From: Leucoraja ocellata
Lineage: Eukaryota
Assembly (NCBI GenBank): GCA_036785375.1
Contig: JAWMAR010000030.1
Coordinates: forward strand, 6,386,001 to 6,450,000
DNA length: 64,000 nucleotides
Direction: 5' to 3'
Shown here: piece after piece, positions 271 to 55,270 of the stretch
Position numbering within the stretch: the first letter of the stretch is position 1
How the letters are laid out: each line of letters begins with the position of its first letter
Made by a program: the position numbers and the translations under genes
Notes under the pieces: generated by a model
The model's input: only the letters and a program-made list of their open reading frames with translations
The model's database searches: none
What the model was told of the DNA's origin: nothing

Positions 271-1306
271 AGGTATGTTACAAAACCTACCTGAATTGTG
301 TCTGAGCATCTGCCCTACCCCGTGTGCGCGATATTGGCGCTGTTTAGAGGGGGCGGGTTTAAAACGCGATTTTTACTAGGCTGTTCCAATCGAAAATGTT
401 CAGCCTAGTAAATCATTAACGGAAAATCGCTGGAAGACCCCGTCGCAAAAGGTATTATTAGTTTTTATGGCGTTGTATAATATTTATAGTAGTTTAAAAA
501 TCACTCTCTCAATCCGCAACCTCTCGCAGCCCCAGGGTTTTATAAAGCAAACAATTAAAGGTATGTACCTTATTTTTACATTAAATGGGGCTTGTATATA
601 ACCCTGTATATAAAGTTTTCTATAGCGAGTAGTTCATTTTGGGCTCTTTATATCCCGCAGTATTTTTCTGGGCATTTGAGGGCACAAATCCAGCGTAATG
701 TGAACGTTCTAAACCAGCGCGTTCACAGGAACCCACTAGAAAGCCGATTTAAATTGACTTTAATTTACAGCAATTGAACACTAAATTCCTTCCATTTGGC
801 CTATAAATTGATGTATATGAGATTTAAAAATCATGTTTTATTGTGAATTATTTGTGAATATTATTTGGACACTTGGGCTATTTAAAAATATTAATCATTT
901 ATTAAGAAATGGATAGATGTTTTGATCTGGTAATTGAAGTTTGAAATTAGCTACAATTGGGTAACTAACTAATTATATGCTTTAATTTCAGGTCATCCAA
1001 GTAAGATTATTTTATATTTGTTTCAGAATGCTTCAATCTATGATAACTGAACATTTCATTCAGTTCTCTTAATTTTTAAGAAGGTTATGGGCTTTTGACT
1101 GTCCACGATCACAGCTTTTTTGTTATGTCCATAGAAAATCAATAGGGAACAAGATGCTAATTTCCGAGTATGAAAATGGCCATAACCTTTTTATTACTTG
1201 AGATATGAAAGTGAATTAGGTGTCAAATTAAACTTATTGTATGCTTTATCTGATGGGATAAATTGCAGGCTTGATTTTTTAAATCTCAAAATTTTGTAAC
1301 ATTGCT
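271..1306. mobile_element. Non-autonomous TIR DNA transposon (~1.04 kb)
   Basis: Imperfect TIRs AGGTATGTTACAAAA (271-285) and TTTTGTAACATTGCT (1292-1306); direct repeat ACCTTGTAT at 262-270 and 1307-1315; no transposase ORF. Confidence 0.75.
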
Positions 1307-1689
1307 ACCTTGTATGCAACACCACCCCACTCATATGAATTGGCAACCCTCACAGCCAACCCGGTCCACTTAGAAACCTTCATTGTACATAAAATCCTCA
1401 TTGTAACCACAGTGATTCAAACAAGGAGGAAAGCAAAGTAAATGAACCATAGATCTGTTATTCTGACATGAGTTGTCAACCAGATTATGGGTGACCATAA
1501 TCAAACACATGGTAACAACAAAGTCAGAAAAATATATAAATTGGTAGAATCAACAGTTACAAAGGAATATCACATTGTATAAGATAGTGTGGGATTGTAG
1601 TTGCTCGTTGAGAATATATCGGTTATAAATGATCACATTTATTCAATTAATTTGAACATTTTTCTGTGATGATATATTCAAATACCATA

Positions 1690-2128
1690 CCATTCCCTGT
1701 CACTTTACCTGCCGACTCGACTCCCTCCGTAACTCCCTGGTCAATTTTTCCCTCCCCAGGTACCTTCCATTGCAACTGCAGGAAATGCTACATTTGTCAC
1801 TTTACCTCCCCCCTTGACTCCATCCAAGGACCCAAGCCGTCTTTCCAGGTGAGGCAGAGGTTCACCTGCACCTCCACCAACCTCATCTACTGCATCCACT
1901 GTTGCAGTTGTCAACTTCTCTACATCGGCGTGACCAAGAGCAGGCTTGGCGATCGCTTCCCCTCCCTTTTCCCAGCACTCCCACAAGACCACTGTCTCTG
2001 CATCTTCCTTTCTTCACCCCCCCTCCCTGGCATCAGTCTGAAGAAGGGTCACGACCCGAAACGTCGCCAGTTCCTTCTCTCCATAGATGCTGCCTCACCC
2101 GCTGAGTTCCTCCAGCATTTTTGTCTAC
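1690..2128 (+). mobile_element. Penelope-like element 3' fragment: GIY-YIG endonuclease remnant plus pseudo-LTR
   Basis: ORF 1666-2184 contains PGTFHCNCRKCYIC...FTCTSTNLIYCIHC..CQLLYIG.TK.RLGDRF (PLE CCHH + GIY-YIG pattern), followed by the pLTR sequence repeated across the window. Confidence 0.85.
2036..2067 (+). ncRNA. Minimal type I hammerhead ribozyme motif (PLE pLTR type)
   Basis: CTGAAGA (2038-2044), A, GGGTC-ac-GACCC (stem II), GAAA, CG, TC; stem III is the palindrome ACGT; stem I is only about 2 bp. Confidence 0.65.
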
Positions 2129-3394
2129 ATACCATTCCCTATATTTATTTTAGTAAAGCTGAAACTTATGAAGTATGTTTATAGGAGTAAGAGGTCCCAA
2201 GTAGCTTAATAGAAGGTGGTGTACAACAATTCCCTCCAAGCAATATGGAAGTATTAGGGTAAATGACCAAAGGTTTGATGAAAGAGACATTTTTTATTAG
2301 CAACTATCGAAGTAAGAGAAAGAGTTGGAGAGACCAAGATGATTAGGGAGGGAACATGCAGTGTTTTATGTTGTTGGAATACAAGGCAGCCACACTTATA
2401 TGCTGCAGCTCCAGTCCTGTTTGCAATGAAGCGAAAACAATGCAGAATCGAATAGGATCCATGATGTTCAATGTTCATTTTTCCTATTGGTAATTTGATA
2501 ATATTCTGCAAACAGAATCATGATGATCTGCTTGAAGTGCAAATATATCTCGTTCAAATCTGATCATAGTTGGAACCACTGGGAAGTTGATCCATTAACA
2601 AAGGGAAGGCAAGACCATGAAAATTAAGGAAGATAAAAAATCTTTGAGTGTTCAACTTGATAATCTATTACAGCCCTTAAAAAAATCAGTTGCAGTTTAA
2701 TTATAATAACATATCTAAGCCGGTTATGATTTCGATATAAAAACCTAGCATTATATTCATATTCAGTTGTTTTAGTATCACTAGCTGCATTATGTTAATC
2801 ATATTTAGGCCAGCATTATTTTTATTTAATAATAGGACTTGTGTCTGATGTAAAGGAACCATCTTATCATTTGTGACATATCCATTGATCTGATGAGTGC
2901 AAGCTGTCTTATCTGTGGCTTTATTTCAATGGATTTAAGGAGTTCAGTAAATAAATCATTTAAGTAAAGTCAATCATTGCTCTCACGTATCTATGTTCAT
3001 AAATAGTATGAAATGATTAACTGGGACATGTTTATGTTTCATTAGTGAAGATAATCTCCTAATTATTGTCGTGATTGAGAGCCATAAGGTTCCTCAGCAG
3101 GGAAATACAAATGGTTATTTCTCTCATTATTTCGCTCATAGCTACCTTATGTCATGAAGAAGCTAGTGATTTTAAAAAGCTCAATTTCTTTCAGTAGTTT
3201 GACTTTTGTGTAAAACTTGATTCAAATTTTTATCAGTTCTGCAATTTTTTTCCAAAGGCATGAATTAGGTGGACATCGTGGGAAATAAACAAGATTGTTA
3301 TGAGAGAAAAGGACAGAAATTGCTGGAAATATTTAGCAGATATGACAGACTTCAGTCTGAATCATTAACTGTTTTATTTTCAACTGATAGATGC

Positions 3395-4192
3395 AAGAGT
3401 AGGTCATCCAGCCCTTCAAGCCAGCACTGCCATTCAATTTGATCATGTCCAATCATCACCAATCAGTACCCCGTTCCTGCCTTCTCCCCATATCCCCTGA
3501 CTCCACTATCTTTAAGAGCCCTATCTAGCTCTCCCTTGAAAGTATCCAGAGAGCCACCCTCTGAGGCAGAGAATTCCATAGACTAACAACTCGGTGTGAA
3601 AAAGTGTTTCCTCATCTCTGTTCTAACCCCTTATTCTGAAACAGTGGCCCCTAGTTCTGGACTCCCCCAACACCGGGAACATGTTTCCTGCCTCTAGTGC
3701 ATCCAAACCCTAAATAATCTTATATGTTTCAATAAGATTCCCTCTCATCCTTCTAAACTCTAGAGTATACAAGCCCAGCCGCTCCATTGTCTCAGCATAT
3801 GACAGTCCCGCCATCCCGGGAATCAACCTTGTAAACCTACGCTGCATTCCCTCAATAGCAATAATGTCCTTCCTCAAATTAAGGGACCAAAACTGCACAC
3901 AATACTCCAGGTTTGGTCTCACTAGGGCCTTATACAACTGCAGAATGATCTCTTTGCTCCTATACTCAACTCCTCTTGTTATGAAGGCCAACATGCCATT
4001 CGCTTTCTTCACTGCCTGCTCTACCTGCATGCTTACTTTCATTGACTGATGAACAAGGACCCCCAGATCCTGTTGTACATCCCCTTTTCCCAACTTGACA
4101 CCATTTAGATAATAATCTGCCTTCCTGTTTTTGCTACCAAAATGGATAACCTCACATTTATCCACATTAAACTGCATCTGCCATGCATCTGC
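3395..4192 (-). mobile_element. CR1-clade LINE 3' fragment (RT C-terminus and 3' UTR)
   Basis: ORF 3710-4177 MQFNVDKCEVIHFG...DLGVLV...KKANGMLAFI...LYKALVRPNLEYCVQFW is the typical CR1 ORF2 end. Confidence 0.92.
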
Positions 4193-4351
4193 CCGAACTA
4201 CTGACTAATTCAAGAGTTTTCAGTTTTGCCTTAGATTCCATGAATATTTTACATAAGATCAGCAAATAAATATGTTCATTTCATGCATTGTTCTTGCACA
4301 TGGTAAAATAAATCCATATCGAGCATCATAGCCTTTTTTCTATAGATATAC

Positions 4352-6811
4352 CAGGTCTCTCACTTAACTTTTTTTCTCTGTTGCCAGCCGGGCAACCTCG
4401 GCAACTTTATAGGTTGCCAAATGACAGTTTAGGTGGTCATTTAAGACGGCTTGCATGACGCGTGCGATAATGTGCTCGGACGAAGAGCAAAGCTCGGATT
4501 TATGCTCAATGAATCATTCACATTATTTCTGCTTCAAGCATGTTTTCTGTGTAGGACCGAATATTATCATGACATGGCCATAGCATGTTTCTTTTCCTCT
4601 TGAATATTTAATCATCAATCTCTATTATGCACAGTCACAACAAGGGAGGTTGATAAATAATTGAATCGATCAGGTTGACAACATCAAGAGGGGAAAAATA
4701 GATACACAATATATCCCTTCTGCTCTAGGATTTTGTAATTTAAAAGAAATAAAGAGAATGGAAGTGTGATTTTTTTTTCTTGTAACAATACTTGTTACTG
4801 TATTATTATTATTATTATTACCTGACCAGACCTATACCAGACTTTTGAATGTACAATCTTGGAACTTGGCAAGTGAGATTCCCCAGAAGGGCAATAAAAA
4901 TTGGTGAAGTGTTTTTTTTGGGGGGGGGGGGGGGGGGGGGATATCAACATTAAATGATCAGAAACATTATATTTGTGAAAACTTGTGTAACTTTTCTGCT
5001 TGATATTTAAACCATCTCCTAAAAAGCAAAATAAAGACAGAGCTGTTCAAATACATCAAAACGCTACTTTATTTGTCATCAGTTTAAGAAGGAACTGCAG
5101 ATGCTGGAAAATCAAAGGTAGTCAAAAATGCTGGGAAAACTCAGCGGGTGAGGCAGCATCTATGGAGCGAAGGAAACATCACTTAATTGTCATCTGTCGC
5201 TCTCGAGCAGAGCATCCTCCTCATCAGACTTGTCACTGTCAGAGTCAGGTCCAGAGGCAGATGCTGCAGCTGGGATCTCTCCCATGTCAGGCATCCTTGC
5301 CCTCATCCCTCCTGCATGCCACAAGCTGATGGCTAGCCGAGTATCAAAGTCCTTGATGTTACTGCCATGCAGAATCTTGAGGAGCTGGTCTGTCACCCCG
5401 TCAATCTGGAGGGATCTTCTGATGGTGGTCTTCAGCTGGCTGAAGGCTCGCTCCGCCTCAGCTGAACTTGCCGGTATGGTAAGGACGAGGTCAAGAAGAG
5501 TGCAGATGTTGGGTAGCTTTTCTTTCCTCACAGGGATGGTTGCTGACCAGGTCAGGGCCTTCTTGCTGAAGCTATATAGAGTCATTAAAACGTATTACAA
5601 TCAGACTTGTCACGTGAAAATATTTATTAAATTAAGTTTTGAATTCTTCAAAGGTATGGCAATACTACAACTGGATAATTTAAATGAATATTTGAACATT
5701 TACTTTGATTGGGAACTTATCCTCGCTTTCAGGAGGTCCCACTCTATTCCCAGTTTTCTTGGGTTCACGTGTACTGTGGTTAGGCTGCCCTTGAGTGCTG
5801 TACCAGTGACTGGACAGCTTCATTTCCGAAATCTGCGGAAAATAAACAAAATAAATATTGACTCAGTCAACTACTAGCGCTTAGGGCACAAACTTTGAAC
5901 TTATGTTGTACTTAATCAACTGGTGACACTGTCAATGTGCAGAATATCTTCCTATATTTTTATATAAAATCTCAAGTATGTAATCATTGTTATAGACTAG
6001 TTGTAATTTTGCCTTTACGGTAAAGTTTAGATTATGATCTAACAAGAAAGCTTTATAAAGAAGTAACGTGCAGCAAATTCAGAGAGAATCATACAGTGAA
6101 TCATACATTAAGATTTGCTCCAAATTTCCTCCACAGTGGTATTAAAAATATCTAAGCTACAAGGGGGCTGCAAGAACTAGGCTTTGCAATTAAAATTAAT
6201 TACTTTGACATGAATTGAATTAAACATACTGAACAAAACTATGCAATACATCATACTTTAAAAAATGCCCATGAAAATTTTGCAACATTGCTCTTGCTGA
6301 AATATCACCTGATAGTCTGCCTTCTGGCCAGAAGTTGAAGCTGACGATCTTCATTGCCTCGCAGACTCTGTCACTCATGTCATGCAATCTAGCCCCAATG
6401 TCGGTGCTGCCGGTCAGATCTCCCTGAAACTGTGCTTGAAATTCAAACATGTTTGGCGTTGACTTCCTGATGTATGAAAAAATATAAATATAATATTCGT
6501 GCTACCATTAAAAACCATATTCTGCCACGTTTGCCTCCCTGCACACGTGGCAGAACATCTCCCCTTCTCATCCTACCTCAACCATTTGTGAACACGTTCC
6601 CATAACTTCTTGACCTTTTCTCATCCTCATACTCTTTATCCATTTCATTTTTTCTTTTTGCTGCCTCATCCTTTGGGTTTGCCCCATTTTTCAGGTAACG
6701 CCACATGATTGATCTCGAGGATGCACAGGCTGACTTATGGAAAGAAGCATGTGCAAGGAGCCCCACGTGTCACTCTTCCTGGGAAAATGTTGGTGTTACA
6801 CTTGGTGTTAC
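4352..6811 (-). mobile_element. Decayed hAT transposon with intron-containing transposase (ZNF862-like); far end lost in assembly gap
   Basis: hAT dimerisation motif LLDLVLTIPASSAEAERAFSQLK (ORF 5190-5585); N-terminal MWRYLK...FCHVC zinc-finger-like remnant at about 6520-6710; AT-rich spacers with splice-like ends; probable terminus CAGGTCTCTCAC at 4352. Confidence 0.75.
5083..5176 (-). mobile_element. Penelope pLTR fragment nested in the hAT element
   Basis: AAGGAACTGCAGATGCTGG...CTCAGCGGGTGAGGCAGCATCTATGGAGCGAAGGAA matches the other pLTR copies. Confidence 0.75.
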
Positions 6812-6966
6812 NNNNNNNNNNNNNNNNNNNNNNNNNNNNNNNNNNNNNNNNNNNNNNNNNNNNNNNNNNNNNNNNNNNNNNNNNNNNNNNNNNNNNNNNN
6901 NNNNNNNNNNNNNNNNNNNNNNNNNNNNNNNNNNNNNNNNNNNNNNNNNNNNNNNNNNNNNNNNNN
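6812..6966. other. Assembly gap (155 N)
   Basis: Run of N. Confidence 1.
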
Positions 6967-8034
6967 TCCTCTAACCTCTCATTCTAGCTAATACACTCCA
7001 ATCCAGACAGCATTCTGATAAACCTCTCTGCACCCTCTCTGAAGCCTCCAATTGAACCTGAAATGTTTTCTGTTTTGTAGGACTCTGATCTTTTATAGAA
7101 CGAATGGTACAAAGGTTATTTTGTTTTAACTAGTCTCAGTACCAGGATTGAAACTTTCAAATCATGGATTAAACTGATCTGTTTATATTGAAGCCTTTTT
7201 CTTTCAGTATGCATAGTACTGGGACAGATTGAATTATGATCTGTATCCTGCTCCATTGGCACAGATTGAGTGTGTGCGCGATCTTTACTAAAATTATCTT
7301 AAAAACAATGAAGGGAAAAAGCATTCACAATGTTTCATTTTCACATCCAATGTTTGTTCAAAATATGCATTGAGCAATTGATAATAAAATATATCAATAA
7401 GTTTCTGATAGTAAAATCTCTATTTAATTGCTAATTAACACATCAAAATAATTGCACGTATTAATATCGGATCAATTCAAGGCTTTGGTGTAATAAATTG
7501 ATTAGATTGCCAATTTCATGCATATTTTACCATCCTTAGCTTTAATTTATAAATTATTTTGATTGCCAATTACCACTTGTTGCATTTATTATTAATTAAA
7601 TTATTACCCATAAGGACTATGTGCTGATGTCTGACTTCAGTTTGACTGTACCTTAATTTTTTTTTAATGAACTTGTTTAAAGGTTAAGTATTTATTTAAT
7701 TGGATTCAATTTATACAATAATTCATAGGAAAAACTATGCTGTAATTTATTATTCAACATATTGCTGTGAAACCAGCCAAGTGAATAAAGAAATAGAGTT
7801 AGGATTAGGGCTGAAGAATGCCATTTTGTTAAGTAACGCTTAAATGCTAGGAAGAGTTATTGTCACTTAATTATTTTCTGCTACCAAGTACTCCATTAAA
7901 TTTATGTTTCCATTGTTAATCTCTTTTTTCACTTTATCAAAATTATTACCCAACCTTTTGAGATACATTTTTCCCTCCAACAGCAATGGATTAGAAAAAT
8001 AAACTGTGTATACTAAATATCTGTAATAATGGTT

Positions 8035-8350
8035 GGCGCGGTGATGCAGCTGGGTTGAGCTGCTGCCTCATGGTGCCCGAGACCCAGGGTCAATCCTGAT
8101 CTCTGGAGCTGTCTGTATAGAGTTTGCACATTCTCCCTGTGACCGTGTGGGTTTCCTCTGGCTACTCCAGTTTCCTCCCACATCTCATGGACGTACAGGT
8201 TTGTAGGTTAATTGGCCTCTATAAAATTGCCCCAAGTGTTCAGGGAATGGATGAAACAGTGGGATAACATAGAACAAGTGCGAGCAGATGATCAATGTGA
8301 ACTAGGTGAGCCAATGTACCTGTTTCCATGCTATATCTTTCAATCAATCA
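8035..8350 (+). mobile_element. tRNA-derived V-SINE-like element
   Basis: tRNA-like head with A/B-box remnants, then V-domain GAGTTTGCACATTCTCCCTGTGACCGTGTGGGTTTCCTCTGG...TTTCCTCCCACAT and a CR1-like tail. Confidence 0.8.
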
Positions 8351-8749
8351 GTCCAGTCCTCTGAATCTTTAATCTAACATTAAATGATAAACAGAAATTG
8401 GAGAAATATTCGGCAATTCTGATTGCATCTATAAAGGGGAAAGTAAATTAATTTTTCAGAGCTAGTCCTAATTTAATTTCCCTCACACACATGCTGAGTG
8501 TTAACAACATTTTCTGTGTTTACTTTTAATTGGTTATGATTCTTTTATTAGATTGAGTTTTACATTCCTGTGTTCTGTTTTTGCTGATATTGTTGCTATG
8601 TACTCATAATTACAGTTTGTTCAAACACATGGTTTTGATTCTTTTTCAGCTATCTAAAATCAAATGGTGATAGAATGTAATATCAGCAGGGTTGTAGTGG
8701 TGATTGTCCAACTTTCCACTATTTACAAGGATTGTCTTGGTGCAAGGCA

Positions 8750-10020
8750 CCTTGAACAGCAAGTTCACAGTCCCTGAAAATGGTGGAATTTGTTAAATGC
8801 ATCCCAGGTGAGTTTTTACAGCAACATACAGAGAGTCTACAAGGAAAGGAGTTGTACTTGACCGTATTTTAGGTAAGGAGGCTAGGAAAGTGGTGGAAGT
8901 GTCTGTGGAGGAGCACTTTGTGAATATGGCCACAACTCGATAAGATTTAAGGAAGTCCTGGAAAAGTACTAGGTTGGACCTAGAACTCTGGTCTTAAATT
9001 GGGGGAGGTCTGATTTCAATAGTGTGGTACAGGGGCTGGCAAACGTTGACTGGGAGCTCGGAAACAGGTCCACCAGGTCCGCGAAGAGACATAGACCAGC
9101 TGGAAAGTTGAGTGAAGGCACGGCAGTGGAATTTAATCCAGGCAAGTGTCAAGTAATACATTAATGGGTTGTCTAATTTTGGCTGGACATATACAGTAAA
9201 GTGCGAAGATCGTAGAAATGTTGATGTGCATAAGGATCTTAAGGTGCAAGTTCACAGCTCCCTGAAAAGGCATTAGGATATCAGAATCAAGGGATATGGG
9301 GAGAAAGCAGGAACGAGGTTTTGATTTCTGGATGATCAGCCATGATCATATTGAATGATGCTTCAGGCTCGAAGGGCCGAATGGCCTATTCCTGCACCTA
9401 TTTGCTATGTTTCTATTACGTGGATAAGGTTGTGAAGAATTCATTTTGCTTGCTTGCCTTCACAGGAAAGGGTATTGTGTGTAAGAGTTTGGAGAGCTGA
9501 ACAAAACGTTGATGAGGTCACACTTGGAATAGTATGCAGAGTTCAAGTCACTGCATAATGGGAAGGATGTGGGGGCACTATAAAGGGTGCAAGAAGTGAT
9601 TCGCCAGGGTGTTGCCTGGACTGGAAGGGTTCAGTTGCAAGGAATGATTGAATAGGCTGTGATGGTTCTCATTAGAGCACAGGAGAGTGCATATAGAGAT
9701 TTGTAAAATTATGATACACATATATAGGATAGATTATCACAACCATGATCCAAGAGTAGTTGAATCTAGATTTAGAGCACATAGGTTTAAGGGGAGAGGG
9801 GAGATCTGTGGGGCTTTTTTTTTCTGCAGAGTATGAGTACAGAGTACAAGTGCAATTACAGCATTCAAAAAGCAATTCAACAGGAACAGGTACAAGAATA
9901 GGAAACAAATTGAGGGGAATGGACCAAATGGAGGAAAATGGGAATAACATAGATGGGCAATAGGTCAGCATGAAAGAATCATACCAAATGGCGTGTTTCC
10001 ACACTCTATGACTCCATGAC
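8750..10020 (+). mobile_element. Decayed CR1 LINE fragments with a nested CR1 3' UTR (about 9275-9415)
   Basis: Nucleotide remnants of CR1 ORF2 (GGATCTTAAGGTGCAAGTTCACAGCTCCCTGAAA) and tail GGCTCGAAGGGCCGAATGGCCTATTCCTGC. Confidence 0.65.
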
Positions 10021-12169
10021 ACCAGTCAATTGTATGTTCTCTTTAAAACATTATAATTTCAAAGGTTTATTCACTATTTTAGTTGCTTTAACTTGTGAGA
10101 GTTGTCTGAATGTGGCCACATTTCACATTGCCTGATACAATTTCTTCAAAGGAAAAAACAGGTTGAGGGGGAGATAAAATGGAACTGGATTGCATTGAAA
10201 GAGAAAACATAACAGTAGGTCTCCTGGAATAAATTAAATCCTGAATGGGCAGCTGTTTCCTGATGGAGCAGTCAACTTTGAATATAGATTTGAATATTTT
10301 ATATATTTCAATGGTGAATAAATCACAACTATGAGTTGCTGGTGCTCATTAGGACCCATTGCTGTTTGTTAGACTTAATGGACAGTGCTCTCCCAGCTTG
10401 ATGGCAGCAACTTGAATTATGGACACAAAATACAAGCACAATTCCAAAATAATTCCAAAAGTACAAAATGTTTTCTGACCTCTTTTGACCACGATTCCAT
10501 CTCTCTGATTTGTGTCCATTTAAAACTGAAAATTGATGTTTGTAAATGTATTAATAATGGCTAAATGCATTAACAACTGGCTTTTCATCATTATAGTCAG
10601 TCATATCTTTCCTGGTGGCAAAGCCATTCATTGTTGGCATATTCTTCATGCTGTGAGGAAGACTGCAGATTAGTAATCATGTTGTACATGTAATACCTTA
10701 CCTCAAAATCATGCTTGTTCAACAGACCCGACAGAACACATTCACGTAAATGGGATTCAGCAGAGCCAGATTCAATTTTATGTTGCAATAGAGAAGAACT
10801 CATACTCAATGGTGCTGGTTTGTTCAATGGAGAAGCAGATGGTCTTAAGTAAAATACAGACCCAAACCTTTGCACAGTCCCAAACAGCAATTGTTAACAA
10901 ATATCACAATTATAAAAATGACAAGAACATTGCAAATATAATAATAATAATAATAATATAATAAACTATATTACGTACTCAAGGTCCAGACAAGGGGCAA
11001 CATTACATTAAAATGCATTGCATATCAAATATCATAAATACATATATAATCATGGTATATCACATAAAAACATCATAATTTATATATTTTTAAAACCCCA
11101 CAATACTTAAGTTAAAAATCCAGATTAAAAGATGATCAATGTCCTACAACGAGACAATGATACCGGTGTCTCCACAGCTGGAATTCGTTGCGTGTAGTGC
11201 TAACCCTTATGTTTGTCAAGGCCACAAGTTACTGACTAGGATGATGTACAGACTAGGGGCGAAAATGACCAATGTGTAGATGAATAAATGAAAAATAAAT
11301 TGCCATTAATGACCAACAGAGGTTAGAATTGATAATGTTATCATTTGTGTCATTTTTTTCATTTGGTCTAGTTTGCATATTTGATTAATTCTTGCTTTAT
11401 TTTTGTGACATTCTCATCGATCATTATTTTTCATTTTCAACCTTATTCTTTTGCCCTTCCAGAACTTTTTATTGATTACTTTTTTCCATAAACTTTTACA
11501 TTTATTTAGTTTCATTGGGTCTGACTTCCATCAAACTTTAAATGAAAGTGGGTTCATTGCAGGCAAGTAGGTTGATAAGTGTGTATTATAAAATGTATTT
11601 GGTCACCTATTTAAAAACATACAACACTGAAAGAGATCATTTTACCCAAATGGTCTATGGGAATGTGTATGTACCACATGAGTTCCCTCACACCATACAA
11701 TACTTGACTTTTTAACTAAAAGCTTCCATTTCCCCCATAAATACATCCATGATTCATCTCATAAAGATCCATTAGCAAAGAGTTTTACTTTTTTAACCAC
11801 TCCCTAGCTAACAAAATTAATCTGAGTTTCTTGCTGGATTTCATATTATTATATTACGTTTAAAAGTGCCACTTTTAGATTCTCCAAAAATGGAAACATC
11901 ATATAAATGACTATTCTGTCAAACTAAGGATTATTTCAAGGCATTTCTTCTCATTACTTTCTCATTATTGGAATAAAGAGCCAAATTTGCTCAATGCCTA
12001 TATTGCAGGGATCTGTTTATTGTGCCCATGTCTCCTTCCCGGTTAACAAGTAGGTGGTGGCACCTTAGAAGACAAAGTCTAATTAGGCCGTTAGTTTTAG
12101 CAAGCAAAGTTCACAAAAGCATTTGAGGTGGTTTGCAGTATTTCTGCCACTGCACCAACTGAGCTTTGT

Positions 12170-13590
12170 GGTTTATTACCCATATGAATGCTTGCCTTCA
12201 TTGCCTGAAGCATTGAATATAGGATTTGGGATTTGTTACAGTTGGTTAGGCTGCAGTTGAAGTATAATGTGCAATTCTGGTGGTCGTGCAATAGGAAGGA
12301 TGCGATTTACCTAGAAATGGTGCAGACAAGATTCACCACTGTGTTGCCTGCACTCAGTGTTCTACGTAGTGAATGGATAGGCTGGGACTTATTTCCAGGG
12401 AACCGGACATGGTGGACTGATGACCTGAGAGACTTTCAAAATTACGAGAGACATACAAAGGGTAGATAGGCACAAAATGTTTCCCAGGGTAGAAGATGCT
12501 AAAGCTTGACGCACGTTTAAAGTGCGAGGGGAAAGAACGGGATCTGAGTAGCAATCTTTTCATGCAGAGGTTGTGGGTAGATAGAATAAGCTGCCAGATA
12601 CAATCACTAAAGTTAGAAGATACTTGGACAGGTACATCGGTCAGAAAGCCTTAGAGGGTTTGGGCCAAATGCATGCAAATGGAGTTAGTGTAGATAGGAA
12701 TTTTGATTGGCATGGTTGAGTTGACCTGAAGGGTTTGTTTTCTTGCAATATAACTGTGAATCTCTGTTGGATGAGCAAAGCCAATGAATTATCCACTTTT
12801 GTTGGTGATGAAAGACTGGATTGAGTTGTGAAGAGGATGCAGAGAGTCTTTAAGAGGGCGTAGACAAGCTAAGTGATTGAGCCGAGCTTCATTTTTAGAT
12901 GGGCTGAGTTGAAAATTGTCAATGTTAAAAGCTGAGGTGTCCTTTATGCAAATTAATGGAAATGAATAGGTACAGCAAAGAGCAAGGAAGGTAAATAGTA
13001 TGTTGGCTGCTATTGCAAAAATAAATGAGTATGAATAAAGTTGTCTTATGAAATTTTACCAGGCCCCGATAAAATTACATTTGGAATATTATATACAAAT
13101 CTGATTACCTACTTAAAAAATAATGCATTCACAGCAAAGGCAGTATGATGAAAAGATCGCTGGATTGATTAAGAGGAGAGATTAAATAGACTAAGCCTGT
13201 ACTGTTGGGCATTTAGATGAGTGAGCTGTGAACTCATTGAGGTATTAAAACATTCTTATGGGGCTTGATAGTTTCAATAAAGGAATGATATTTTGCTGGA
13301 GTTGAGTGCCTTTTATCTCGGGAGGCACAGTTGGATATTCAAGCTTGATGATTAAAAAAAATCTTCACCCACAGGGTAATGAATCTTTGGAATTCTCTGG
13401 GCAAAAGAGCTTTAGAGATTCATCTATTGACTATATTCAAGTCGGAGACTAATTTATTTTTGGATATTGAAGAGATCAATGGATATGGAGTGCAGAAAAG
13501 TGGAACTGGGGTGAAAGATCAGACATGATCTTTTTGAATGGCTGAGCGTGGACAAGGAGCTGAATGTTTTATCCCTCCTTTTATTTCTTC
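12170..13590 (+). mobile_element. Two tandem decayed CR1 3' fragments
   Basis: ORF 12233-12469 LVRLQLKYNVQFW...RKD..LE.VQ.RFT resembles the CR1 RT end; 3' UTR-like ends at about 12750 and 13580. Confidence 0.65.
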
Positions 13591-13845
13591 TGCTAACTAG
13601 GTATCCCTTAGATCTAGAGCACAAAAATCTGGTTAACATCTTTCACAGCCTTGATGTCCTGAAGTGCTTTATCGTCAGTGAAGATTTTGAGCTTTAGGCG
13701 CAACTGTAATTAAAAATAAGCTGATTTTAGTTTAATTTAGAGATACAGCATGGAAACAGGCCCATCGGCCCACTGAGTATGCGCCAAACAGTGATCCCCG
13801 TACACGCATTATCTTACACACTAGGGATAATTTACAACCTTTACT

Positions 13846-13982
13846 TCTTCTTCTTTCGTGTGGCGTGCACAGCCTAAAGTTGTTGGGCAACTTGTTCTAT
13901 TTGATCTTCCGTTTGTGCACATCGAGTTGATTGCATTAGTCGAAACAGGGCGGACCACGTGAAGGTTGCAATCTTTCACCCC
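13846..13982 (-). mobile_element. Short non-autonomous retroposon headed by an HDV-like ribozyme (copy 1)
   Basis: TSD ACAACCTTTACT (13834-13845) / ATAATCTTTACT (13983-13994); minus-strand tail CACACGAAAGAAGAAG; homologous to 55136-55270. Confidence 0.8.
13929..13982 (-). ncRNA. Minimal HDV-like ribozyme fold (copy 1)
   Basis: GGGGUGA-AA-GAUUGCA-ACC-UUCACGU-GGU-CCGCCCU-GUUUCGACUAA-UGCAAUC: P1 with G1-U wobble and one A-C mismatch; intact P2 and P3; L3 UUCACGU; catalytic-C motif CUAA. Confidence 0.75.
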
Positions 13983-14789
13983 ATAATCTTTACTGAAGCC
14001 AGTTAAACTGCAAACCTGTACATCTTTGGAGTGGGGAGAAAACCGGAGCTCCGGGGAAAACTCACATGGTCACGGGGAGAAGGTATAAACTCCGTACAGA
14101 CAGCACCCGTTCTCAGGTTTGAACCCGGGTCTTGGACATTGTAAGCCAGCAATACTGCTGTGTCACAGTGCCGCTCCGCTGCTCTACCGTGCCACTCCAA
14201 ATGTACGCACAATAAGCTCACATTTCAGGCCACATGAAAACCATCAGATAAACTATTTTAATGATGTTTATTGGGGAATAAATATTGGTCCAAGGCAGAA
14301 GGGGTGATGCCTAACTTTTTGATGTAGTGCTTTGAGAGAATTCGTAAGAGATAGGAAGAGGTCATTTGACCCTTCAATCCTGCTCTGTTATTCAATAGAT
14401 CAAGGCGCATCCTTCATCTTAGTGTTGCTGTCCTGAACTACCCCGGCTCTTGATTCCAATAATACCCAAACACTTATTGATTTTTGACCAGGCATGTCTT
14501 CATTGCAACCTCTGGAGTGCAGAACTCCATTAGTATTGCACTGGTGTGTCAGCTGGAACTTTGCTCATCTGTGAAAATACTTTTAAGTCTGTAATAACCC
14601 GCTGAGGCTGAAATGAGTATGTTTGCTGCTTTATCGTACATGACATCTGTACGTATCTGTGATATCATACTTATAGAATTTAATAAAATATATTTACCAT
14701 TGTGACAAATTATGGTCAGCCAGGTTGGTGAATCTATGCTTTTGAATTTATACATAACATAATTACTTGTTGCTTTTCTTCTTGTCCAG

Positions 14790-54890: not shown

Positions 54891-55135
54891 GAGAAGTACT
54901 TCTCTGAGCTACAGCCAGCATTGCAGGGAGGCAAATATGGTCAGAAAAACAATTGTAATGAATGACCAGGTAATTATTTTAATAGCACTAGGAAGAAAGA
55001 ATGAGTATCCCCAGTTGATTCTGGAATAATGTCAACGCCCTCAGCATTGCAGGTTATATATCAAATGAATGGTTGGGTAGAATGGTGAAGCACCTAGTGG
55101 AGCTGCTGCCTTATATAACATTAGCGACCCAGGTC

Positions 55136-55270
55136 GTCTTCTTGCGTATGGTGTGCACAGCCTAAAGTTGAAGGTCAACTTTTCTATTTGATCCAATTGT
55201 GTGTGCACGTCGGGTTGATTGCATTAGTCGAAACAGGGTGGATGACGTGAAGGTTGCAATCTCCCACCCC
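55136..55270 (-). mobile_element. Short non-autonomous retroposon headed by an HDV-like ribozyme (copy 2)
   Basis: 13-bp TSD AGCGACCCAGGTC (55123-55135) / AGCGATCCAGGTC (55271-55283); minus-strand tail CATACGCAAGAAGAC. Confidence 0.82.
55217..55270 (-). ncRNA. Minimal HDV-like ribozyme fold (copy 2; P3 mutated)
   Basis: GGGGUGG-GA-GAUUGCA-ACC-UUCACGU-CAU-CCACCCU-GUUUCGACUAA-UGCAAUC: fully paired P1 and P2; P3' GGU changed to CAU. Confidence 0.7.

Follow-up and report, generated by a model that had tools for sequence, protein, structure and literature searches.

The 137-nt element at positions 13846 to 13982 of the window (the whole 64,000-nt stretch of Leucoraja ocellata DNA analysed here) belongs to a high-copy family of miniatures that, with a probability of about 0.8, derive from a Vingi-like LINE, are released by a predicted HDV-like ribozyme, are copied by the LINE protein and have their ends joined by a predicted helix inherited from the parent. 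The bipartite make-up, the parent LINE carrying both ends and a single ORF, the copy number, the starts at G1, the GAA tails and the target-site duplications were established in the genome. The basic design, a two-ended LINE derivative with a P4-less ribozyme, is already known; added here are the identity of the long stem with the 5'-3' helix of the parent, the recurrence of this helix in two unrelated families, and the 5' inversions of the parent. The features of the window are as follows.

13846..13982, minus strand: copy 1, the 137-nt non-autonomous element, of the least diverged subfamily C (from sequence)
13983..13994, minus strand: target-site duplication, upstream copy, 12 bp with 2 mismatches, abutting G1
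13834..13845, minus strand: target-site duplication, downstream copy
13904..13982, minus strand: part from the parent 5'-UTR, nt 1 to ~79, the match of copy 1 being clear to nt 72
13891..13903, minus strand: 13-nt filler at the deletion junction, nt 80-92, absent from either parent end
13846..13890, minus strand: part from the parent 3' end, nt 93-137 (last ORF codons, stop, short 3'-UTR and tail)
13929..13982, minus strand: predicted P4-less HDV-like ribozyme, nt 1-54 (from sequence, descriptor scan and pair counts)
13914..13921, minus strand: 5' arm of the long-range helix, nt 62-69, from the parent 5'-UTR
13864..13871, minus strand: 3' arm of the long-range helix, nt 112-119, from the parent 3'-UTR
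13877..13893, minus strand: AAGUUG/CAACUU hairpin, nt 90-106, spanning the junction
13844..13862, minus strand: terminal CA(C/U)ACG motif and (GAA)n tail
55134..55270, minus strand: copy 2, of the parent-like subfamily A, with a broken P3 and a 13-bp duplication with 1 mismatch

A miniature made of both ends of one LINE

The first ~79 and the last ~45 nt of the element are the ends of one Vingi-like LINE of the same genome, and the claim of the preliminary description that the element is an internal-deletion derivative keeping a 5' and a 3' end was thereby borne out. A search with the 3' part of copy 2 returned miniatures only. The parent was found with a pattern that the miniatures cannot match, in which the 3' part of the element is read as the codons that close an ORF, with the spacing from Trp to stop typical of Vingi/Ingi-type proteins. 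This pattern gave 420 matches in the genome and none in the control. The 30 matches examined are LINE 3' ends whose last 38-45 nt (fewer in two) are common to the element at 82-97% identity, and in 18 of 30 loci fetched with the LINE 5' region the same ribozyme head runs into the endonuclease. The 5'-UTR of these copies is 106 nt long. One decayed parent copy is full-length (L181, G000:C1:10105469-10109690, minus strand), with both ends and an 8-bp duplication, and is colinear with residues 29-1008 of P0001; the 5' part of the element matches one decayed parent copy at 63 of 72 nt. ARAGORN, run on window positions 13500-14300 for a tRNA-like head, returned 0 genes, the head of the element being LINE 5'-UTR. 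The junction filler opens with a repeat of parent nt 72-79. The parent has the hexamer UUGACC directly ahead of the start codon (5'-UTR nt 101-106) and again where the 3' part of the miniature starts. It may have served as microhomology in the deletion that gave rise to the miniature, though the filler fails to align to the intervening UTR. A one-off two-ended derivative was also seen at L205:891-1764 (minus strand), where a colinear parent copy has nt 13 to ~610 joined to the last ~320 nt.

The parent has a single ORF with an APE endonuclease, an RT and a C-terminal Cys/His motif; RNase H gave no match (E up to 0.1) in five parent pieces and three intact relatives. Passages of PMC13708176 give a compact single ORF with APE endonuclease and RT as the Vingi architecture. 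The nearest database relative, a 1,019-aa protein that is intact and lies on a contig of 3.3 kb, has 77% identity in the RT; the PDB held no close RT, the best being L1 ORF2p, and viral_contigs no relative of the parent. In an RT tree of 21 rows the parent was separated both from the RTE elements of the genome (27-33% identity) and from the I-like ones (29-30%); as the tree contained no named Vingi or Ingi element, the parent is assigned to the Vingi type from its architecture and its ends. The I-like family, which we take to be Nimb-like, gave no match to the element in 30 loci collected through PF14529. It is a young LINE family with intact 1,268-codon frames (L091-L120, e.g. G000:C45:2609565). 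All parent copies seen are broken; they are 84-92% alike and look older than subfamily C, whose mover may therefore be an unseen copy or the protein of a sister family. From the shared ends, the parent protein is likely to move the miniature in trans.

Exact matches to the junction 19-mer number at least 9,703 and those to the 33-nt ribozyme core at least 3,662 in the 3.44-Gb genome, with 0 in the control of each; these are lower bounds because only exact matches were counted, and the insertions may be fewer because many loci occur in near-identical pairs. The best 40 matches to copy 1 are 96-100% identical to it. Thirty of the best matches were examined: they begin at the G1 position and finish in (GAA)n, and 29 carry a target-site duplication of 7-15 bp. 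The first 30 matches on contig C1, which include seven near-identical pairs and hence stand for 23 insertions, comprise 29 full-length copies, 22 of them starting from G1 and seven matching from nt 2-4 but with their duplication directly beside the position of G1, and one 5'-truncated copy. More than half of the sampled element words were present in sequencing runs of seven organisms, four of which gave 713-12,426 contigs each.

Three subfamilies, A, B and C, were distinguished among 67 independent copies (83 of 90 were usable). Subfamily A is nearest the parent LINE and copy 1 falls within C, whose mean distance of 1.8% from its own majority line is lowered by the selection for likeness to copy 1. 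The subfamily changes spare P2, P3, L3, C44 and both stem cores, and consist of U5-A to U5-G, the second J4/2 base, loops and linkers; in subfamily B, A61G and A96U each add one pair beside a 3' helix. A7 and G119A break terminal pairs. Though few, the subfamily changes would fit selection on the fold.

Several minor observations concern the insertion sites. Copy 1 is nested in an older abundant repeat (window 13700-13845 and 13983-14100), the halves of which match elsewhere in the window at 72-89%. Each of the two window copies is matched, at a distance of ~0.5 Mb on its contig (G000:C30:~6.89-6.94 Mb), by a twin in inverted orientation that is 98-99% identical to it; such pairs are common in the assembly and represent segmental duplication or unmerged haplotypes. 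At the loci L216-L245 and L001-L030, G1 is preceded in most cases by T or C and rarely by G, and the duplications usually start with A or G and overlap the GAA tail, which suggests annealing between tail and target. Clusters of copies ~2 kb apart lie seemingly inside a tandem repeat (G000:C1:19261562-19274616 and 19408472-19431442).

The predicted ribozyme head

The first 54 nt fold into a predicted ribozyme with G1 at window position 13982 and the predicted catalytic C44 at 13939. In copy 1, P1 joins nt 1-7 to 30-36, with a G1-U36 wobble, U5-G32 and an A7-C30 mismatch (13976/13953); P2 joins nt 10-16 to 48-54 with all pairs formed; P3 joins nt 17-19 to 27-29, with L3 reading UUCACGU; and P1.1 is the single pair C22-G37. 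P4 is missing, GUUUCGA standing there, and J4/2 is CUAA, including C44. The predicted fold has the nested double pseudoknot of P1, P1.1, P2 and P3 with a G1-U wobble, and C44 is the first base of J4/2, the catalytic-C position by which HDV-like ribozymes are defined (passages of PMC10879173). The minus-strand fold agrees with the preliminary description on the retention of P2, P3, L3 and CUAA, on the A-C mismatch at P1 position 7 and on the U5-G32 pair of copy 1 where copy 2, 85% identical, has U5-A32. The terminal CA(C/U)ACG and GAA-type tail that it had noted were likewise seen, as CACACG followed by a GAA tail in copy 1.

The further claim that copy 1 is the likelier active ribozyme stood with one qualification. 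Copy 2 has G7-C30, but CAU replaces GGU in its P3 (two mismatches), so that copy 1 folds better. A7 is nonetheless a sporadic defect relative to the family: the twin locus L006, 99% identical to copy 1, has G7, and A7 occurs in none of the 29 full-length copies of the unselected sample. Copy 1 is therefore no privileged copy within the family.

Every ribozyme pair and core base is kept in 14 of 30 copies of the unselected sample from contig C1. An Rfam search of the window found nothing at gathering level, and L197 and the intact copy L002 match no Rfam ribozyme family at E up to 1. Covariation above shuffles was absent from the pairs of 51 miniature copies, ribozyme helices included, and the predicted minimum-energy structure is a competing non-pseudoknot fold. 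The ribozyme fold recurs with other sequences in relatives, 3 of 34 by a strict descriptor that misses folds recognised by eye (about 15), compared with 0 of 170 shuffles; four of ten relatives gave weak Rfam matches. The 54-nt head is likely to be a self-cleaving HDV-like ribozyme cutting 5' of G1. Thousands of intact 54-nt HDV-like folds in one genome could, if so, cut host pre-mRNAs.

Related families carry heads of the same kind. The sister Vingi-like family of this genome (L321-L346, e.g. G000:C40:7970522), with 33-42% identity to P0001, has CPEB3-like ribozyme heads and full-length copies with duplications, L344 having an open stretch of 571 codons. RF00622 (CPEB3) exceeds its cut-off of 35 at 56 places, with a best score of 64.7 bits, and these include at least one further head type besides that of the sister family. 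Metagenome relatives show varied HDV-like 5' ends with P4 (L250, L251, L254, L257, L259-L261, L264, L272, L277, L279 and L287); L254 scores 41.6 bits on HDV-F-prausnitzii, for a cut-off of 44.

As far as the cited passages go, several known systems resemble the element. Pr77/L1TcRz of the L1Tc/ingi clade is an HDV-like ribozyme with which both an Ingi-related LINE and the short derivatives of that LINE begin, its presumed role being the release of the element from co-transcripts (PMC4035085); it is 77 nt long and active in trypanosomes, whereas the present head measures 54 nt, is predicted only and resides in a vertebrate-sized genome. The drz-Mtgn-1 and theta ribozymes share the missing P4 and the catalytic C as first base of J4/2 (PMC10879173) but come from metagenomes and phages, beside tRNAs, and not from the head of a retroelement in thousands of copies. 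The 5' end of Vingi-2_Gav (Kojima 2018 supplement) is HDV-like by eye, with the same L3 heptamer and P1 end; it has P4, is nearer still to the sister family and is not named a ribozyme in the cited passages. Bipartite non-autonomous LINEs are reported to be formed only by RTE, Ingi, Vingi and R2 (PMC5786205), and examples include the Vingi-1_EE derivatives, RIME (Ingi), NARTc (L1Tc), Bov-A and the R2 SIDEs (PMC5786205, PMC4494074, PMC6765202). Like the present element these consist of LINE 5' and 3' ends without ORF or tRNA head and have a tail and target-site duplications; distinctive here are the length of only 137 nt, the 54-nt P4-less ribozyme head and the helix joining the parental ends.

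Predicted pairing between the ends and rival explanations

In the proposed mechanism, the element would be transcribed by Pol II as a passenger in host transcripts, and self-cleavage 5' of G1 would free it, as described for R2 and L1Tc in passages of PMC6765202 and PMC4035085. A Vingi-type protein would then bind it at the paired ends, and the GAA tail would prime target-primed reverse transcription, copying to G1 and leaving 7-15-bp duplications. Passenger transcription, self-cleavage and GAA-tail priming are carried over by analogy from known non-LTR biology.

The paired ends are GUGCACA (nt 63-69, window 13914-13920) and UGUGCAC (nt 112-118, window 13865-13871), which enclose the AAGUUG/CAACUU hairpin (nt 90-95/101-106). 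Stem and hairpin, both noticed in the preliminary description, are present in the minimum-energy fold of both copies. Their interpretation as a structured 3' body did not hold: with nt 1 to ~79 coming from the 5'-UTR and nt 93-137 from the 3' end, the long stem joins the LINE 5'-UTR, source of its 5' arm, to the 3'-UTR, while the hairpin straddles the deletion junction and is absent in that form from the parent 3' end. The 3' body does not exceed shuffled sequence in stability (z of -0.44 and -1.10 for the two copies), and the long-stem 7-mer is not enriched in the window (15 occurrences for 8.6 expected; 5 of 100 shuffles as high). That description also proposed these stems as the recognition signal of the partner LINE RT and expected them to be conserved in a multi-copy alignment. 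Conservation was found as 93% pairing in 51 miniature copies but not as covariation, which did not rise above shuffles, in keeping with copies that decay after insertion. The GUGCAC core is a palindrome beside CpG sites, and CpG decay may therefore account for part of the changes that look like wobble or compensation (pair 62-119).

In the parent, the same helix arms lie ~3 kb apart. The predicted duplex runs on there into a second helix, using the CAACU strand of the miniature's hairpin; the miniature lost the partner of this strand and pairs it instead with AAGUUG, a new partner on the other side of the junction. Pairing of the 45 nt after parent P2 with the last 35 nt beat 558 of 558 body windows for three of eight 5' copies, the least mutated ones; 6-21 of the 558 windows were as good for four others and 169 for one. 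With four 3' copies, 0-11 of 500 shuffles were as good.

A helix in the same register but of unrelated letters was found in three of eight related families, with 8, 9 and 13 bp. That of the sister family is a 9-bp Watson-Crick helix that starts at +6 past P2 and stops 3 nt short of the terminal CG, and that of the metagenome element L287 has 13 bp; in each of these two, none of ~950 body positions is as long as the end helix. L254, L257, L261, L264 and L311 have 2-5 bp in register, L273 and L313 having been excluded from this test as members of the L257 family. Across families, end pairings reach at most 6 bp (56 tested). With a register that was set after the three positive cases were seen, the observed helix sum was reached in 56 of 40,320 permutations, and in 56 of 5,040 without the parent; the five short-helix families among themselves are at chance level (56 of 120). 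By free energy, 53-99 of ~580 body windows of the sister family beat the terminal window, and wide-window free energy gave no support for end pairing in L181 (which has a deletion in its 3' end; 56 of 500 shuffles) or L261. An off-register 8-bp match in L261 was not significant. The feature most widely shared by distant relatives is CAUACG followed by a microsatellite, which is the likelier candidate for the priming signal. For the 5'-3' helix to be a functional clasp that the miniature kept, modelling leaves about even odds; we propose that it would have been kept because it brings the two ends next to each other, as the protein would require.

The strongest alternative accepts the same element and parent but regards the long stem as incidental, its arms being chance complements round a palindrome and the working parts being the ribozyme or promoter, YACG and the tail. 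We give it somewhat less than an even chance. It accounts for the lack of the long helix in five of eight families, for the want of covariation within the family and fold z-scores near zero, and for terminal CAUACG being what distant relatives have in common; it has to treat as coincidence that three unrelated sequences pair in one register, although no body position gives a helix of that length and pairings between families stay at 6 bp or less, and that subfamily B extends both helices.

Two other explanations touch the head and the partner. The exact 5' ends could come from an internal +1 promoter like the Pr77 of L1Tc, the P4-less fold being slow or inactive and acting as a protective or protein-binding 5' cap. 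In the related Ingi clade, Pr77 does act as promoter as well as ribozyme (passages of PMC3383444), and the present head has one P1.1 pair, no P4 and a competing non-pseudoknot fold as predicted minimum. We nevertheless consider this unlikely: C44, G1-U36, U20, C22 and G25 are constant across subfamilies while the adjoining J4/2 base varies, P4-less HDV-like ribozymes are active in vitro (passages of PMC10879173), and relatives keep the fold with other sequences. Far less probable still is mobilisation by an RTE or RTE-X LINE, the partner named in the preliminary description, although two-ended RTE derivatives are common according to passages of PMC5786205 and the genome does contain one GAA-tailed RTE family. 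That one family (30 loci by PF20049, compared in its 3' part, the 5' end not being reached) shares neither end with the element, whereas the Vingi-like LINE matches both. The search for a LINE with both termini that had been called for thus found one, but not of RTE type, and an RTE origin of the element is largely refuted.

5'-inverted copies of the parent

Parent copies with an inverted 5' piece were found at 5 of 23 independent loci with a mid-ORF query and, by automatic count, at 11 of 22 loci with a 5' query, the query itself being one and L207/L208 apparently one event. L200 is a further inversion recognised by eye among the 5'-query loci, and short 3'-anchored loci gave 0 of 26 automatically and one by eye (L132). 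The inversion loci are L153, L158-L160, L166, L188, L189, L198, L200-L202, L207, L210, L213, L215 and L132. In the 13 inversions examined, clear duplications surround L132, L166, L198, L200, L202 and L213, the others being weak or unclear.

To our knowledge, twin priming is confined to mammalian L1. The literature passages covered by our search (Repbase and patents lay outside it) held no report of 5' inversion outside L1 or of a Vingi ribozyme. Twin priming of L1 is described in passages of PMC2912911 and PMC4476161, and 5'-inverted L1 copies share with the present ones an inverted 5' piece joined to a 3' piece within one target-site duplication; here, in contrast, the element is a Vingi-like LINE and in most cases 0.7-3.9 kb are missing between the pieces. 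If the two ends were joined in the RNA, this would account for 5'-UTR priming in the inversions. We tentatively suggest, at odds a little short of even, that in a subset of Vingi elements the RNA is looped by a helix between the sequence after the ribozyme and that before the priming motif, and that the protein recognises this clasp, which would explain both the two-ended miniatures and the capture of inverted 5' pieces across gaps of kilobases.

The end-to-end helix is a concrete candidate that can be mutated, and the 137-nt element a natural minimal template for it. According to passages of PMC13708176, Vingi-1 is already in use for RNA-only gene writing with both UTRs present in the donor RNAs, and one platform gave about 25% truncated insertions; a rule of end pairing and a tendency to 5' inversion would therefore bear on template design.

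Classic inversions with small gaps were seen at L158, L210 and L215, and the remaining copies miss 0.7-3.9 kb. Three inversions capture only nt ~10-79, the part kept by the miniature, and in four independent inversions (L198, L200, L202 and L207) the outer edge lies at parent nt 293-302.
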